Source: Planctomycetota bacterium
Lineage (GTDB): Bacteria; Planctomycetota; JAJSAM01; JAJVHW01
Assembly (NCBI GenBank): GCA_965248445.1
Contig: CBDFJG010000001.1
Coordinates: forward strand, 448,001 to 512,000
Reading direction: 5' to 3'
DNA length: 64,000 nucleotides
Of the stretch, positions 55,200-61,004 are shown one piece after another (the first letter of the stretch is position 1; the number at the start of each line of letters is the position of its first letter). The translations under genes were made by a program, and so were the position numbers. The notes beneath the pieces are model-generated. The model saw only the letters and a program-made list of their open reading frames with translations, did not search any database and was not told where the DNA came from.

Positions 55200-56450
55200 A
55201 TGCGAGTCGATCTGCTGATCACGAACGCATCGGAACTGCTGACCATGGCGGACGGTCCGGACGGACCGCTGCGCGGTGCTGATCTGGCAGCGCCGGGGAT
55301 CGTCGAGGACGGCGCCGTGGCGATTCGTGCGGGCACGATCGAAGCAGTCGGCACGACCGCGGAGCTGACCGCACGGTGTGAGCCGGATCACACGATCGAC
55401 GCCGGGGGATGCGTCGTGTTACCGGGCTTCGTGGACCCGCACACACACTTGGTGTTCGGCCGCACGCGTGAGTACGAGTTCGAGAGGCGCTGCCTCGGAC
55501 AGTCGTACGAGGAGATCGCCGCCGCCGGCGGCGGCATCCAGGCGTCCGCGCGGCGCTTCCGTGTCACGCCCCGAGAGGAGATCGTCGCCCAGGCCCGCGT
55601 GACGCGGCGGCGGGCGCTGCTGCACGGCACCACGACCATCGAGATCAAGTCCGGCTACGGCCTCTCGACAGAGACCGAGCTGCTCGCCCTCGAGATCGCC
55701 GGCGAGATCGACGACCGCGGCGACGTCGTGCGCACGTTCCTCGGCGCGCACGAAGTACCCGGCGAGTGGCGTCAGGACCGCGCGGGTTACGTCAAGCTCG
55801 TCGTCGAGGAGATGCTCCCCGCCGTCGCAGAGGGCGACCTCGCGCAATTCTGCGACGTGTTCTGCGAGGAGCACGTGTTCACGTGCGACGAGACACGCAC
55901 CATCTCCGAGGCGGCCAAGGCGCTCGGACTGGGCATCAAACTGCACGCCGACGAACTCGCCGGAACCGGCGGCGCCGAACTCGCCGTGGAACTCGGAGCG
56001 ACGTCCGCCGATCACCTGATGCGCGTGAGCGACGAGGGCATCGCGGCGCTCGCCGGAAGCGACACCGTCGCCGTGCTGCTGCCTGCGACGTCCTATTTCC
56101 TCGGCATGAAGCACTTCGCGCCGGCGCGCAAGATGATCGACGCCGGCTGCGCGGTCGCACTCGCCACGGACTGCAACCCCGGCTCGTCGATGACGGAGAA
56201 CCCGCAGACCACGCTCACGACCGCGTGCATCGGGCTCTGCCTCCGCCCCATCGAGGCGCTGGCGATGATGACCCGCAACGCTGCCTACGCCCTGTCACTC
56301 GGGCATCGCGTCGGAAGGCTGGCTCCGGGTTATCGCGCTGACGTGCTGATCACCGACGCCGCGAACCACCGGCTGATCCCGTATCACCACGGCGTGAACC
56401 ACGTGAATACCGTGGTGCATCATGGTGAGGTCGTTGGCGAGGCCGGTTAG
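55200..56450 (+). CDS. hutI: Imidazolonepropionase
   Basis: PGFVDPHTHLVF, GTTTIEIKSGYGL, TFLGAH, DVFCE, HADEL, SADHL and ATDCNPGSS. Confidence 0.95.
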   Translation: MRVDLLITNASELLTMADGPDGPLRGADLAAPGIVEDGAVAIRAGTIEAVGTTAELTARCEPDHTIDAGGCVVLPGFVDPHTHLVFGRTREYEFERRCLGQSYEEIAAAGGGIQASARRFRVTPREEIVAQARVTRRRALLHGTTTIEIKSGYGLSTETELLALEIAGEIDDRGDVVRTFLGAHEVPGEWRQDRAGYVKLVVEEMLPAVAEGDLAQFCDVFCEEHVFTCDETRTISEAAKALGLGIKLHADELAGTGGAELAVELGATSADHLMRVSDEGIAALAGSDTVAVLLPATSYFLGMKHFAPARKMIDAGCAVALATDCNPGSSMTENPQTTLTTACIGLCLRPIEALAMMTRNAAYALSLGHRVGRLAPGYRADVLITDAANHRLIPYHHGVNHVNTVVHHGEVVGEAG

Positions 56451-57778
56451 TCGCGCAGTTCCGTCTGCAGCCAGTGCAGCGCCTTGCGCGCCTTGTCGAC
56501 CGACATACCCGCCCAGCCGTGTCCGCCCGCGTACGTGTCGGTGGCGATGTTGGTCGACTTCTTGCCGAACCACTTCCGCGCCCGCTCCACGAAGATGTAG
56601 TTGCAGGTCTTGTCTTCGGGCGAATGCAAGATGAACCGCGGCCGCTTCTTGCCGATGCGTTTGCTGTCCATCTGGTCTTGCTTGAACACGGACATCACGA
56701 CCAGCGACGCCGTCACGGGGGTTCTCCTCAAGGTGTGGATGCGATAGCACGCGGGGCCGCTCGACGACCACGACACCGTGATGACACGCCGTGGGTCGAT
56801 CTTCACGCGTGAGGAGAGGTCCTCGACGACAGAAGCGACGAACTCCTCTGTCGTGAACTTCATCTTGTCGACCTTCGACTTTTCGGTCGGCCAGATGATC
56901 TGCTGCTCCGGCGTCCACTTCTTCGCGACGAGTTCGGCCATGACCACGCCGGCACCGACCCAGTCCTGGTAGCGCTCCTCGCACCACGCGCGGAACTCGG
57001 CGTTCCCCGACCCGCCCGGCAGAACAAGCACGAGCGCATACCCTGCGTCGGGTGCCGGATCGCGGTGCTTCGGGCCGAACTGGAAGTACTCCATGCCTTC
57101 CTTGTCCGGGACCACGTGCTCGGCGGATGCCTTCGGCAACGGCGTCTTCTCGAACGTGAACGTCTCGTGCTCGTCGCCGACGACGGTGAATCCGCGAGCG
57201 GTCCACCCCGGTCCCGGATAGCGCACGCGCACGGTTGCCCGGTCCCCCGCCTCGAACCACGTCACCGCGAGTTCGCCCTTCGCGTCCGTACGCTGTGTGA
57301 ACGGGTAGGCGGCATTCCCGTGTACCGAATGCAGCGCAGCGTCTTTCGTGAAACGCGCGGCGGGATAGACCTCGACGTTCGCGGCGGGCTTGCCGTCGTC
57401 GAGGAAGCGCAGCGTCACCGGGTGCCCCGGCGTCAGGTCGAGCGTGAAGTCGTCGGCGAAAACGCCGGTGTCCGACTCCAGGTACGGCGCCTGCAGCGCC
57501 CCACCGGGCGCGACGGTTGCGATCCACGCGCCGAACCACCCGCCGACGGCGGGAAGCGCGTTCGGCATCACGAACTTGCCGTCGGCGCCGGTCTTCCCCT
57601 CGTGAGTCAGCATCGTGAACTTACCGTCCGGGCGAGACTTGACGACGGCGGTGACGACCGCGCCCTCTGCGGGCTTGCCATCGACGGTCACCGATCCATC
57701 GAGCTCTCTCTCTCCGGCGGCCAGCGCGAGCGCCGCGAGTGATACAGCGGCGAACGCGGCGAACACGATGCGACTCAT
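56447..57778 (-). CDS. Secreted protein with carboxypeptidase-regulatory-like repeats and an alpha/beta-hydrolase domain
   Basis: Signal peptide; DGKPAEGAVV; IDPRRV..SWSSSG, HSPED and GGH (Ser-Asp-His-like). Confidence 0.7.
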   Translation of the reverse strand: MSRIVFAAFAAVSLAALALAAGERELDGSVTVDGKPAEGAVVTAVVKSRPDGKFTMLTHEGKTGADGKFVMPNALPAVGGWFGAWIATVAPGGALQAPYLESDTGVFADDFTLDLTPGHPVTLRFLDDGKPAANVEVYPAARFTKDAALHSVHGNAAYPFTQRTDAKGELAVTWFEAGDRATVRVRYPGPGWTARGFTVVGDEHETFTFEKTPLPKASAEHVVPDKEGMEYFQFGPKHRDPAPDAGYALVLVLPGGSGNAEFRAWCEERYQDWVGAGVVMAELVAKKWTPEQQIIWPTEKSKVDKMKFTTEEFVASVVEDLSSRVKIDPRRVITVSWSSSGPACYRIHTLRRTPVTASLVVMSVFKQDQMDSKRIGKKRPRFILHSPEDKTCNYIFVERARKWFGKKSTNIATDTYAGGHGWAGMSVDKARKALHWLQTELRD

Positions 57779-58350
57779 GCGAGACCCTCCGATGGCGAGG
57801 CGTCATCGCCTCCGGGCCGGCGCGCAATCCGGCGGAGCGCTGCACGGACCACCGCGCTGACCAAGTACATGATGAGCGCCGCGCTGACGAATGTGCCCAC
57901 CGCGTGTGCGGGTTCAGGCCACCATCGGACCACGAGAACGAGCGCGCCCGCCCAGCCGGCCACTACGGCCAGGTAGGCCGTTGCCAACAACGTCAAATGG
58001 ACGCGTGATCGCTGGCTCTCCATCCACGCCTCATGCCGCGCGGAGGTCTCTTGCAGCACGACGCCGCGCAGACACCCGATCACGAGCACGGCGGGCCACG
58101 CGAGCAGGAACGCCACGCCGTAGCGCGAGAAGAGATCGCGTGGATCCGACAGCTCGGCGCCGGATCGGCGCCCGCCCCAGTCGAGAACCTCGATTCCCTC
58201 GGACGGCAGGACCGTGCCGAGACCGACGACCGTCACCAGGCCGACCGCTCCGATCACGAACCAGCCGCGCGAGAACAGCATCGCCTGGAGACCGGAAGAC
58301 GACTCCAGCACCCGGGCAGGGCGTCTTGGTCCGGCGACCGGGCGTTCCAT
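57775..58350 (-). CDS. Hypothetical membrane protein
   Basis: Four hydrophobic segments; its stop overlaps the next ATG. Confidence 0.55.
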   Translation of the reverse strand: MERPVAGPRRPARVLESSSGLQAMLFSRGWFVIGAVGLVTVVGLGTVLPSEGIEVLDWGGRRSGAELSDPRDLFSRYGVAFLLAWPAVLVIGCLRGVVLQETSARHEAWMESQRSRVHLTLLATAYLAVVAGWAGALVLVVRWWPEPAHAVGTFVSAALIMYLVSAVVRAALRRIARRPGGDDASPSEGLA

Positions 58351-58448
58351 GCGCCACAGCTTAGCCCATCGGCAACCGCGCGACGCTCCGCCACGACTGC
58401 GCCCTCGGCCGCAGGCGGCGTACCCTGCCGCGTTCCGGAGGAGATGAC

Positions 58449-59963
58449 ATGCCGCTCGTCGAGTGCGTACCCAACTTCAGTGAAGGCCGCCGGCCCGATG
58501 TCGTGCAGGCGATCCAGGCCGCGATCGCGTCCGCGGAGGGCGTCACGGTCGTCGGCTGCGAGATGGACGCGGACCACAACCGCGCCGTCGTCACGCTGCT
58601 CGGCGAGGTCGAGGCCGTCAAGGAGGGCGCGTTCCGCGGCATCGCCAAGGCCACCGAGCTGATCGACCTGCGGGAACATGAGGGCGCGCACCCGCGCATG
58701 GGCGCGACCGATGTCGTGCCGTTCGTACCGCTCGGCGACACACCGATGCAGGTCTGCGTCGATGCCGCGCAGGACCTCGCACGACGTGTGGGCGACGAGC
58801 TTTCGATCCCCGTGTACCTGTACGAGAATGCGGCTGTACGCGAGGGACGCCGCGGGCTCGCGAAGATCCGGAAGGGCCAGTTCGAGAAGCTCAGCGAGTT
58901 GATCGGGACGGACCCCGACCGCGAACCGGACCACGGTCCGCACGCGATTCACGAGAGCGCGGGCGCGACGGCGATCGGCGCCCGGTTCTTCCTGGTCGCC
59001 TACAACGTGAACCTCGCGTCGAACGACGTCGCGCTCGCCAAGGAGATCGGCAAGACGATCCGCGAGAAGAACGGCGGTCTGCCGGGTGTGAAGTCGATGG
59101 GCTTCCACCTCGAGGAGCGTGACCTTGCACAGGTCTCGATGAACCTCGTGGATTACCGCAAGACCTCACCGGGCGCCGCGTTCGAGGAGATCCGGCGGCT
59201 GGCCGGGGCGAAGGGTGTCGAGATCCTCGAGAGCGAGGTGATCGGTCTGATCCCGCAGGCGGCGATCACGCAGTCGTTCGTCGACATGACGAAGCCCGCA
59301 GGCTGGACCGGTGAGGAGGTCATCGAGAGCCGGTTGCCGAAGCCGGACGCTCTGTCCTCGGCCGGTCCGTTCCTCGACGCGCTCTCGTCGGCCGCACCGA
59401 CGCCCGGCGGTGGATCCGCAGCCGCGCTGGTCGGCGCCGCGGGCGCGGCGCTCGTCGCGATGGTCACGAACCTGACGATCGGCAGGAAGAAGTACGCCGA
59501 GGTCGAGGACGAGATGCGCGCGTTGCGCACGCAGTCGCTCGCGTTGCAGCGGTCGATGGACGCGCTTGTCCGGCGGGACGCCGAGGCCTACGCCGGCTTC
59601 ATGGTCGCGATGAAGCTCCCCAAGGAGACCGGCGCCGACAAGGCCGCGCGCAAGGACGCGATGGCGGCAGCGGCGGTCGTCGCAGCCGAGGTGCCGCTCG
59701 AGACGATGCGCCAGGCCGTCGCGGTGATGGAACTCGCGGTCACCGCCGCTGCCAAGGGCAACCGCAACGCCGCGTCGGACGGCGGCGTGGGCGCACTGCT
59801 CGCCCGCGCAGCGCTCCGCGCCGCGGATCTGAACGTCCGCATCAACCTGCCGTCGGTCAAGGATGAGGAACTGCGGGTTCGGCTCGCAGACGAAGCCGCG
59901 GCGCTGTCCGCGCGCGCCGAGACGCTCGAGAACGACGCGCTCGCCGCAACCGGCCTCCTCTGA
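58449..59963 (+). CDS. ftcd: Bifunctional glutamate formimidoyltransferase / formimidoyl-THF cyclodeaminase
   Basis: LVECVPNFSEGR, DADHNR, HPRMGATDVVPF, QVSMNL and C-terminal PTPGGGSAAA..SDGGVG..NVRINL. Confidence 0.93.
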   Translation: MPLVECVPNFSEGRRPDVVQAIQAAIASAEGVTVVGCEMDADHNRAVVTLLGEVEAVKEGAFRGIAKATELIDLREHEGAHPRMGATDVVPFVPLGDTPMQVCVDAAQDLARRVGDELSIPVYLYENAAVREGRRGLAKIRKGQFEKLSELIGTDPDREPDHGPHAIHESAGATAIGARFFLVAYNVNLASNDVALAKEIGKTIREKNGGLPGVKSMGFHLEERDLAQVSMNLVDYRKTSPGAAFEEIRRLAGAKGVEILESEVIGLIPQAAITQSFVDMTKPAGWTGEEVIESRLPKPDALSSAGPFLDALSSAAPTPGGGSAAALVGAAGAALVAMVTNLTIGRKKYAEVEDEMRALRTQSLALQRSMDALVRRDAEAYAGFMVAMKLPKETGADKAARKDAMAAAAVVAAEVPLETMRQAVAVMELAVTAAAKGNRNAASDGGVGALLARAALRAADLNVRINLPSVKDEELRVRLADEAAALSARAETLENDALAATGLL

Positions 59964-60062
59964 GATCGCGCTCGTCTGTTGAGACTGACGCTTCGTGCGT
60001 GGGCAAGCGCCGCGCCCTGTCGCGATACGCGGCACCCCCTTTTCGTGCCCGCGCGTCGTTGG

Positions 60063-60335
60063 TATCTTGCTGCCCAGAAGTGTCGGACAGCCGTGTCCGG
60101 CACGGGCGAGAGTCCTGAACGGCGGCCTGCCACGGCTACCCGGAGGGAGTGGCCCGAGGCCTCCTAACAGCGGAAATCGGTACCGCAGCGAGAGGCCTCA
60201 CTGAGAGGAGGTGATCATGTCAAGTGGCTGTAATCGGAGGCTGTCCGCCGGGTAGGCTGACGTGCCAGCCCGGCAGGGCAGCAGACTAGACATGCAGGGG
60301 CGGCGTTCCTTCCGGGGCGTCGCCCCTGTTCCTTT
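60063..60335 (+). ncRNA. Candidate structured RNA / micro-ORF transcript
   Basis: TGG-TATCTT extended -10-like box, several stems, AGGAGGTGATC, a 12-codon ORF at 60217-60255 and a terminator. Confidence 0.55.
60295..60335 (+). terminator. Intrinsic terminator
   Basis: CAGGGGCGGCGTTCC-TTCC-GGGGCGTCGCCCCTG followed by TTCCTTT. Confidence 0.7.
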
Positions 60336-60437: not shown

Positions 60438-61004
60438 TCAGCGATCGAGCTTCGACAGCACGGCGCGGTTGCCGAGGACGTAGTCGAACAGCGACAGCAG
60501 CGTGACGCCCGCGACCACCCACATCAGTGGGTTCGCGAGGCTCAGGCGCACCCACTCGTCGTCCTTGTCGATCACCTCGGGGAACGCGCGCGCGGCGACG
60601 ATCACGATGATCGCCGTCGCCTGCACGATCGCCTTCAGCTTGCCGCTCCAGCGGGCCGATACGATCACGCCCTGGCTCGCGGCGAAGATGCGCACCGTCG
60701 AGACGATCGCGTCGCGATAGAAGATCAGCGCGATCGCCCAGACCGACGCGTAGCCCAGCACCAGGAACGCCAGGAACACGGTGAACCGGCTCACCGAGTC
60801 GGCGAGCGGGTCCAGGATCTTGCCGAGCTGACTCACCTGTTCCAGGCGCCGCGCCAGGAACCCGTCCGCCAGATCCGTGAACTCGAACGTCAGTACGAGC
60901 ACGAGGGCGATCCACTTCCCGGACGGCGCTTCAGTCAAGAACGCCCACAGGAAGAACGGCGCACCGAGCAGCCGGCAGAGCGACAGGATGTTCGGGATCT
61001 TCAT
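60438..61004 (-). CDS. pgsA: CDP-diacylglycerol--glycerol-3-phosphate 3-phosphatidyltransferase
   Basis: IPNILSLCR, TDLADGFLARR..SQLGKILDPLAD and GKLKA. Confidence 0.85.
   Translation of the reverse strand: MKIPNILSLCRLLGAPFFLWAFLTEAPSGKWIALVLVLTFEFTDLADGFLARRLEQVSQLGKILDPLADSVSRFTVFLAFLVLGYASVWAIALIFYRDAIVSTVRIFAASQGVIVSARWSGKLKAIVQATAIIVIVAARAFPEVIDKDDEWVRLSLANPLMWVVAGVTLLSLFDYVLGNRAVLSKLDR

Follow-up and report, generated by a model that had tools for sequence, protein, structure and literature searches.

A conserved folded small RNA gene with an extended Shine-Dalgarno tract and a short reading frame in planctomycetes

The RNA gene between ftcd and pgsA

The window (the whole stretch of 64,000 nt that was analysed) belongs to G000, a planctomycete genome that is 92% complete. 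A small RNA gene is predicted between ftcd and the convergent gene pgsA; its features and neighbours are as follows.

58449..59963, plus strand: ftcd (glutamate formimidoyltransferase-cyclodeaminase, TIGR02024), upstream neighbour
60060..60068, plus strand: extended -10-like box TGG-TATCTT; one TAnnnT box 150-158 nt 5' of the ATG in 8/8 family copies
60075..60335, plus strand: predicted RNA of ~260 nt, with conserved promoter and terminator; relatives' metatranscriptome contigs run from 60088/60090 to 60284-60291
60080..60103, plus strand: hairpin P1, 10 bp, loop GCCG (60090-60093); in the MFE fold, with covariation in 6 family copies; predicted to kiss P6
60104..60155, plus strand: middle region P2/P3, weakly defined, with conserved GCCAC at 60130-60134
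60156..60199, plus strand: hairpin P4, variable in sequence, ending directly ahead of the ribosome-binding site
60203..60216, plus strand: extended Shine-Dalgarno SD1; 11 Watson-Crick pairs (60206-60216), 14 with G-U, to the 16S tail of G000
60216..60294, plus strand: outer helix P7 over the start codon (CATGTC 60216-60221 with GACATG 60289-60294), variable among homologues
60217..60255, plus strand: 12-codon ORF MSSGCNRRLSAG and stop; its start, length and stop are conserved, without selection on the peptide
60236..60240, plus strand: internal Shine-Dalgarno SD2 (GGAGG), 9 nt ahead of the final sense codon
60240-60246 with 60276-60282, plus strand: helix P5, with covariation; 60240..60282 folds at -32.9 kcal/mol
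60247-60274, plus strand: hairpin P6, loop GACG (60259-60262), with the stop codon inside its 5' arm
60294..60335, plus strand: intrinsic terminator, 16 pairs, 11 of them G-C, and T tail
60438..61004, minus strand: pgsA (TIGR00560), convergent downstream neighbour

The motifs of this gene that an earlier note had listed are present where that note placed them, including GAGGCCTC at 60156-60163 and 60192-60199, AGGAGGTGATC at 60206-60216, the ORF at 60217-60255 and the terminator at 60294-60329 with its T tail. SD2 and the loop-loop covariation described below were overlooked there. The stem AGCCGTG/CACGGCT (60089-60137), also proposed in the note, excludes the MFE hairpin P1, and only 3-4 bp of it persist in relatives; it does not belong to the conserved fold. 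The region folds with a z-score of -5.17 against shuffles (0/200 as good, terminator included). A search of the window against Rfam gives no match, with hits only at chance level at E<=10.

Distribution, neighbours and expression

The earlier note called for a collection of homologues and a check for structural covariation. Covariance models supplied the former, with 52 inspected Planctomycetota copies (window included) at about one per genome, and helices P5 and P6 covary across them. G000 itself has a single copy. BLAST and a pattern search found copies in 5/7 other genomes of the same family and on one metagenome contig. Three rounds of covariance models, built on the 3' domain, found copies in 7/17 genomes of the class and in 6/25 and 15/40 genomes of two other classes. 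In a phylum-wide sample, 52/151 genomes matched at E<=0.02; of the 54 matches, 30 were examined as loci (10 known, 20 new), and of the 24 weaker ones the second match in G000 (model R3) was examined and looks like chance. When 40 genomes of mixed phyla were searched, the three top matches were the three planctomycetes. The loose pattern, run over genome contigs, yields 2 real copies among at least 120 loci, the rest being chance; its four matches in viral sequences include no real copy.

The 52 copies comprise a training set of 29 (28 genomes and one contig, with the coding-region match L184 removed) and 23 later copies. Removed after inspection as chance or ordinary genes were L164, L184, L214, L205, L215, L216/L245, L244, L249, L250 and the second R3 match in G000. 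The homologues are related by kinship, and copy counts consequently overstate independence. Judged by comparison of these sequences, the element is a real conserved folded small RNA gene found in many planctomycetes.

Look-alikes with a long Shine-Dalgarno sequence and a start codon occur elsewhere: L248 in Dehalococcoidia (G253), L246 in Nocardioides (G225) and L217 in Burkholderiales (G259), with ORFs of 10, 12 and 26 codons respectively. L248 and L246 have a 6-8-nt Shine-Dalgarno sequence ahead of the stop; L248 and L217 have a -10-like box and a terminator.

Gene order around the RNA is conserved in part. In 15/28 genomes ftcd is found on the same strand, within 3.5 kb upstream; by family, this holds for 6/7 in f1, 8/9 in f53, 1/6 in f28 and 0/6 in f74, some contigs being short. 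In the other 13/28, which include all 6 of f74, ftcd is absent from the fetched flanks, several of them on short contigs. Downstream genes vary in identity and orientation across genomes and are often convergent, like pgsA in the window. Since ftcd synteny is confined to part of the genomes and each of the 29 training copies has its own -10-like box, the element looks like a free-standing gene whose synteny is old.

In the window (55200-59963), hutI and ftcd are split by two opposite-strand frames, 56447-57778 and 57775-58350, with no NCBIfam match; the pair hutI-ftcd, and pgsA-DUF89-gspK past the RNA, recur in relatives. In family f1 (L185-L190), a ~400-residue protein without a Pfam match adjoins the RNA in six relatives; in five it lies between ftcd and the RNA, a place where it is absent in the window. 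Type II toxin-antitoxin genes (YefM-YoeB; a PIN-domain gene) lie 3' of the RNA terminator in L189 (G002) and L188 (G006), which suggests an insertion site.

A TAnnnT box is found upstream in 29/29 training copies, 116-183 nt 5' of the start codon. A sigma-70 scan that requires a -35 box found no promoter-like site on either strand of the region, so the -10 call rests on conservation; from it we infer a transcription start near 60075. A minus-strand TTGACA was considered as an antisense promoter and rejected: no -10 box follows it, and it is missing in several copies. A terminator-like hairpin is present in 50/52 copies by a loose test.

Thirteen RNA-labelled sequencing runs (12 recorded as RNA) share a few words with the stretch; four of these, from four studies, were compared in detail. 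Three runs from three studies each give one ~200-nt contig, over 60090-60286, 60090-60291 and 60088-60284, with 7, 17 and 17 differences; the fourth gives two shorter pieces from more distant copies. The contigs end at the P1 loop and ahead of the terminator, and two of the three have a short loose start that we take to be sequencing adapter. Because the runs were found using this stretch, their missing cover of ftcd and pgsA is no evidence. The contigs give no strand, end or level and DNA carry-over is possible; they are a weak hint of expression. With the box in all training copies and the terminator-like hairpin, they agree with the earlier note's proposal of an independent small transcript.

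Ribosome-binding sites, reading frame and fold

A long anti-16S tract is found in all 52 copies. Over the 29 training copies the complement is near-maximal, at 9-19 Watson-Crick pairs (17-19 in 4/29), all lengths being measured against the 16S tail of G000 with a presumed mature end. In the window, SD1 is spaced 5 nt from the ATG. As a start site it ranks 3rd of the 397 SD-like sites below -14 kcal/mol. The earlier note had emphasised this tract: it is indeed there, but the 11-mer by itself is not unique, as the genome has it 11 times, mostly in what reads like coding sequence and once as the complement of the 16S gene itself. The note's view of a very strong 30S-binding site, predicted from the 16S complement, with a genuine short ORF enclosed by the fold, stands. 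The strongest SD-like start in the genome lies on the minus strand near position 1325957 of G000:C4, before a 62-codon frame with two CxxC motifs; this is possibly an unannotated zinc-ribbon protein.

The ORF is kept throughout. Among the 52 copies, starts are ATG in 30, GTG in 20 and TTG in 2; stops are TAG in 21, TGA in 17 and TAA in 14. In 29/29 training copies the first stop in frame is reached at codons 10-12, compared with 0/29 and 1/29 for the other frames and a chance of 0.10 in shuffles. In the later copies it falls at 9-13 codons in 23/23 (the start was hand-picked in 6, altering the frame in 2). In one genome (G004), the frame is shifted relative to P6 over its 3' half, with a new TAA stop.

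The encoded peptides are short and polar. They are alike within families, frequently with Ser/Cys early on and R-x-P/L-S at the end; SD2 and P5 fall on the conserved codons. Within families, single-base codon differences are synonymous in 8 cases and non-synonymous in 25, i.e. 24% synonymous against 26% expected without selection, in a small sample. These neutral changes speak against a functional micropeptide, which the earlier note had offered as one reading. Since the peptide is without selection, what is maintained seems to be translation as such.

SD2 is a second, internal Shine-Dalgarno sequence. A match of at least 4 nt to the anti-Shine-Dalgarno sequence, placed 3-9 nt ahead of the last sense codon (5-9 nt with a single exception), occurs in 28/29 training and 22/23 later copies, 50/52 in total; a match of at least 5 nt occurs in 18/29 and 13/23. 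As controls, 1660 stops of long genes in G000 give 25% for at least 4 nt and 7.7% for at least 5 nt; the corresponding values for shuffled ORFs are 24% and 6%. From its sequence, SD2 would pair with 16S rRNA once the ribosome gets to the stop. It overlaps the foot of P5, with a mean unpaired probability of 0.57, 0.40, 0.28 and 0.14 at its first four bases; structure may consequently account for part of its conservation. An in-frame rare AGG codon was considered as a tRNA sensor. It is present in f1, f53 and f74 but is GGG in 6/6 of f28, so the AGG is better explained by SD2. Pausing at internal Shine-Dalgarno sequences has been disputed. For Caulobacter, the available part of one article reports it (PMC4117421).

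Covariation is seen in the 3' domain. At the P6 tip, 21 double changes are found (0/500 shuffles) in a MAFFT alignment not fitted to P6, and slid controls score much lower. In the model-fitted alignment, with L184 still included, P5/P6 show double changes at 11/14 pairs. The window copy has the whole of the start-hiding helix CATGTC/GACATG of the earlier note, which varies in other copies.

GCCAC at 60130-60134 could pair with GTGGC of codons 3-4; there are compensating changes in G002 and G004, and the pairing is not significant per sequence. For codons 2-5 generally, candidates for pairing with the 5' domain and their compensating changes are family-specific, with shuffle p<0.05 in only 4/29. 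In family f53 (L170-L173, L175, L176, L163), a loop 46-49 nt 5' of the start complements codons 2-4, and G072 shows a compensating change. The 3' tail of the f28 copies can alternatively pair with the 5' half of the Shine-Dalgarno sequence. CCTCCT of P4 was considered as an anti-Shine-Dalgarno sequence and rejected, as it is altered in near relatives.

The P6 loop is GACG in 47 copies and GGCG in 5. In the 5' domain, a GNCG loop closing a stem of at least 5 bp is found in 35/52 copies and a 7-nt loop in 11; 6 have no candidate by this test. The 7-nt loops carry CGU where P6 has GACG in six copies and CGC where P6 has GGCG in four, with a single, doubtful exception; a CGC 5' loop is also present in the fifth GGCG copy, though it was dropped by the filter. 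This swap of U-A for C-G between distant loops is as a kissing contact predicts and points to one, although it may reflect few events. The covariation extends over five families and may stem from one to three events. The 35/52 GNCG-loop copies could form just 2-3 pairs, with no covariation to test, and in the family of the window the P1 loop could alternatively pair with ACG at 60132-60134. Three copies, L191, L193 and L165 (G142, G166, G167), have no clear P1 loop; close to the tip of the hairpin that precedes the Shine-Dalgarno sequence they carry GTCGC, which complements the P6 loop and is a possible substitute contact. In murine leukemia virus RNA, according to the part of the report available, paired GACG loops kiss (PMC5874298). 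That contact is likewise between two GACG-loop hairpins; it is a viral dimerisation signal joining two molecules, whereas here the contact is predicted within one bacterial RNA, across the ORF, and no homology is implied.

Known RNAs and possible function

The available text of Hahn et al. (RNA Biol 14:1353, PMC5711450) describes rreB as a 165-nt RNA with a 17-nt Shine-Dalgarno sequence and a 14-codon ORF, taken by those authors as a small-protein gene. It co-sediments with 30S subunits (tight binding) and is weakly translated; without its start codon its lifetime rises from 10 to 37 min. It is far rarer than ribosomes, and 20-fold overproduction left growth unchanged, which argues against the plain ribosome decoy suggested by the earlier note. 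In the same text an ATG-start case is noted for Azospirillum rre, and rre are found solely in Alphaproteobacteria. CC2171 (RF01867) is an expressed RNA of unassigned function in the portions available of its descriptions (bioRxiv 10.1101/2022.01.24.477521; PMC11701678).

The nearest known counterparts of the planctomycete RNA are rreB and rreR as there described; like them, it is a stand-alone small transcript with an extended anti-16S Shine-Dalgarno sequence, a short ORF starting with GTG or ATG, a terminator and varying neighbours. Unlike rreB, whose Shine-Dalgarno region starts 8 nt from the 5' end (PMC5711450, available text), it has a structured 5' domain of 110-170 nt; its Shine-Dalgarno sequence does not lie at the extreme 5' end of the transcript, as the -10 box is 116-183 nt before the start codon in 29/29. 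Its ORF has 9-13 codons compared with 14-18 in the rre covered by that text, and its peptide is without selection. P5-P6 with a GACG/GGCG loop, a strong SD2 at the stop, the predicted kissing loop and a different phylum also set it apart from rre. The perfect 16S complement of 16-17 nt that marks rre is shorter in the window copy (11 Watson-Crick, 14 with G-U) and is followed by ATG; in G157, G166 and G167 the exact 17-nt hallmark is found, ending in the first G of GTG. The layout of a free-standing gene with promoter, short ORF and terminator is the same.

The earlier note could assign no named RNA family. This needs amending: rre is a published precedent, and Rfam CC2171 matches the 3' domain of 8/20 homologue loci with 22.8-38.7 bits, below the gathering threshold of 75, with no match on the window copy. 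The CC2171 consensus opens with the same Shine-Dalgarno sequence and GUG start; its early codons form a helix with the 3' tail, and a terminator follows. Pairing of early codons with the 3' tail is seen in the window fold and some homologues, and is weak or variable in others. The rreB cloning primer, as given in the available text, matches the start of the CC2171 consensus; CC2171 and rre therefore appear to be one family. CC2171 also matches a Thermus thermophilus control genome at E<=0.01, below threshold.

Model R2 scores six alphaproteobacterial copies at 15-20 bits, mostly from the Shine-Dalgarno sequence. Their ORFs have 14-27 codons and begin MSH; a 4-nt SD2 is found in 3/6 and a 5-nt SD2 in 0/6. 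In these six, no 5' domain is evident before the Shine-Dalgarno sequence and no P6-type GACG hairpin is scored by the model. The planctomycete and alphaproteobacterial RNAs may share descent or may have converged on the 16S complement, as the cross-matches rest largely on the Shine-Dalgarno sequence. It is likely that the planctomycete RNA works like rre/CC2171, yet the window copy falls short of the 16-17-nt complement and of the Rfam threshold. In the mainly open-access literature searched, there is no report of such an RNA in planctomycetes.

Several other RNA classes were compared. In leader-peptide attenuators of the trpL type, translation of a short ORF matters rather than its product, and hairpins and a terminator come after; the planctomycete RNA has the same order of short ORF, hairpins and terminator, but lacks a conserved co-oriented downstream operon and a run of one amino acid's codons. 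6S RNA (RF00013) has no Rfam match in the window, and a separate 6S lies on C3 (50.4 bits); ARAGORN returns nothing in the window, and G000 has separate tmRNA and SRP RNA copies and a separate RNase P motif. A CsrB/RsmZ-type sponge is rejected: no CsrA was found in G000 (92% complete), and the conserved loops are GNCG, not GGA. A type I toxin mRNA is rejected as well, since the peptides are short, polar and neutral and the scan shows no promoter-like site on either strand. Resemblances to SAM-I, cobalamin and T-box motifs are not conserved in relatives. In Bacteroidia, there is the idea that a long Shine-Dalgarno sequence senses bS21-free ribosomes; bS21 is present in G000, which speaks neither for nor against such a role here.

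On balance, we think it probable that this is a folded mini-mRNA of the rre design, with its own transcript, which grips the 30S subunit via its long Shine-Dalgarno sequence and is weakly translated, and in which ribosome passage rather than the peptide would be the switch. Comparison of the homologues establishes a conserved start, 9-13 codons and a stop, a neutral peptide, covarying P5-P6, SD2 and covarying loops; 30S gripping and weak translation are inferred by analogy. The untranslated RNA would form a ring, closed by a kiss between the P1 and P6 loops that spans the ribosome-binding site and ORF. A 30S subunit would load at SD1 and leave slowly; after 3-4 codons the ribosome would meet P5, unwind P5-P6 and break the kiss. 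SD2 would then hold it at the stop codon, which is sited in or just before the P6 arm. The shape of the RNA, and by analogy with rreB its lifetime, would report ribosome activity.

A tightly regulated mRNA for a functional micropeptide, with structure merely limiting output, is an unlikely alternative. The ORF is kept in 52/52 copies, peptides are similar within families (early Ser/Cys, R-x-P/L-S end), and the available text of Hahn et al. reads rreB as a small-protein gene; the substitutions are however neutral, length varies from 9 to 13 codons, the frame changes over the 3' half in G004, and the conserved codons fall on SD2 and P5. The RNA could instead tether or store ribosomes, parking 30S or terminating 70S or shielding the 16S tail, e.g. 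in starvation. Its near-maximal complement (9-19 Watson-Crick pairs over 29 copies), SD2 and the assembly, in metatranscriptomes, of this RNA from relatives of a rare lineage favour such a role. A pure tether would need no conserved start and stop, though, and rreB, in the text available, is far scarcer than ribosomes and without growth effect at 20-fold excess (PMC5711450); we consider a tether improbable.

The two G-N-C-G hairpins might serve as twin sites for a dimeric protein, or as seeds for target RNAs, with the ORF only timing their exposure. Two similar loops, both GACG in many copies, and the recurrence of CGACGG two or three times fit this idea, but the loops covary with each other, which direct pairing fits better, and neither CsrA (in the 92% complete G000) nor a conserved neighbouring regulator was found; we give it little weight. 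Much less credible is a cis element, acting either on the following gene as a leader-peptide attenuator or as a 3' element that belongs to the hutI-ftcd operon: the attenuator-like order of ORF, hairpins and terminator and the presence of ftcd upstream in 15/28 are countered by downstream genes that differ and are often convergent, by the RNA's own -10 box in 29/29, and by the 13/28 genomes, all 6 of f74 included, without ftcd in their fetched flanks (several contigs short). We can practically discount that the element is a mobile-element end, a product of chance or a divergent form of a housekeeping RNA (6S, SRP, tmRNA, RNase P). About one copy per genome, changing neighbours and the toxin-antitoxin genes after it in G002 and G006 speak for these; the genome has separate 6S, SRP, tmRNA and an RNase P motif, the window has no Rfam match, the element is single-copy, and 0 of the 4 viral pattern matches are real.

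The reading as a translation-switched mini-mRNA of the rre design can be extended, tentatively and with doubt. Ribosome-gated RNA rings may be widespread, with a kiss that closes around two Shine-Dalgarno sequences catching the ribosome at start and stop, so that the open or closed state would report translational capacity. Alphaproteobacterial rre would then be a pared-down form, and the look-alikes in Actinomycetota, Chloroflexota and Burkholderiales would belong here too.

The element is a conserved RNA gene of a large phylum that has gone unannotated and that Rfam misses. In the available descriptions, the function of rre/CC2171 has been open since it was described and rre has until now been reported only from Alphaproteobacteria. 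In the phylum-wide planctomycete form, comparison shows that translation is conserved and the peptide is not. SD2 at the stop and the covarying loop-loop contact are new; they are two precise, mutable features that are testable in vitro.
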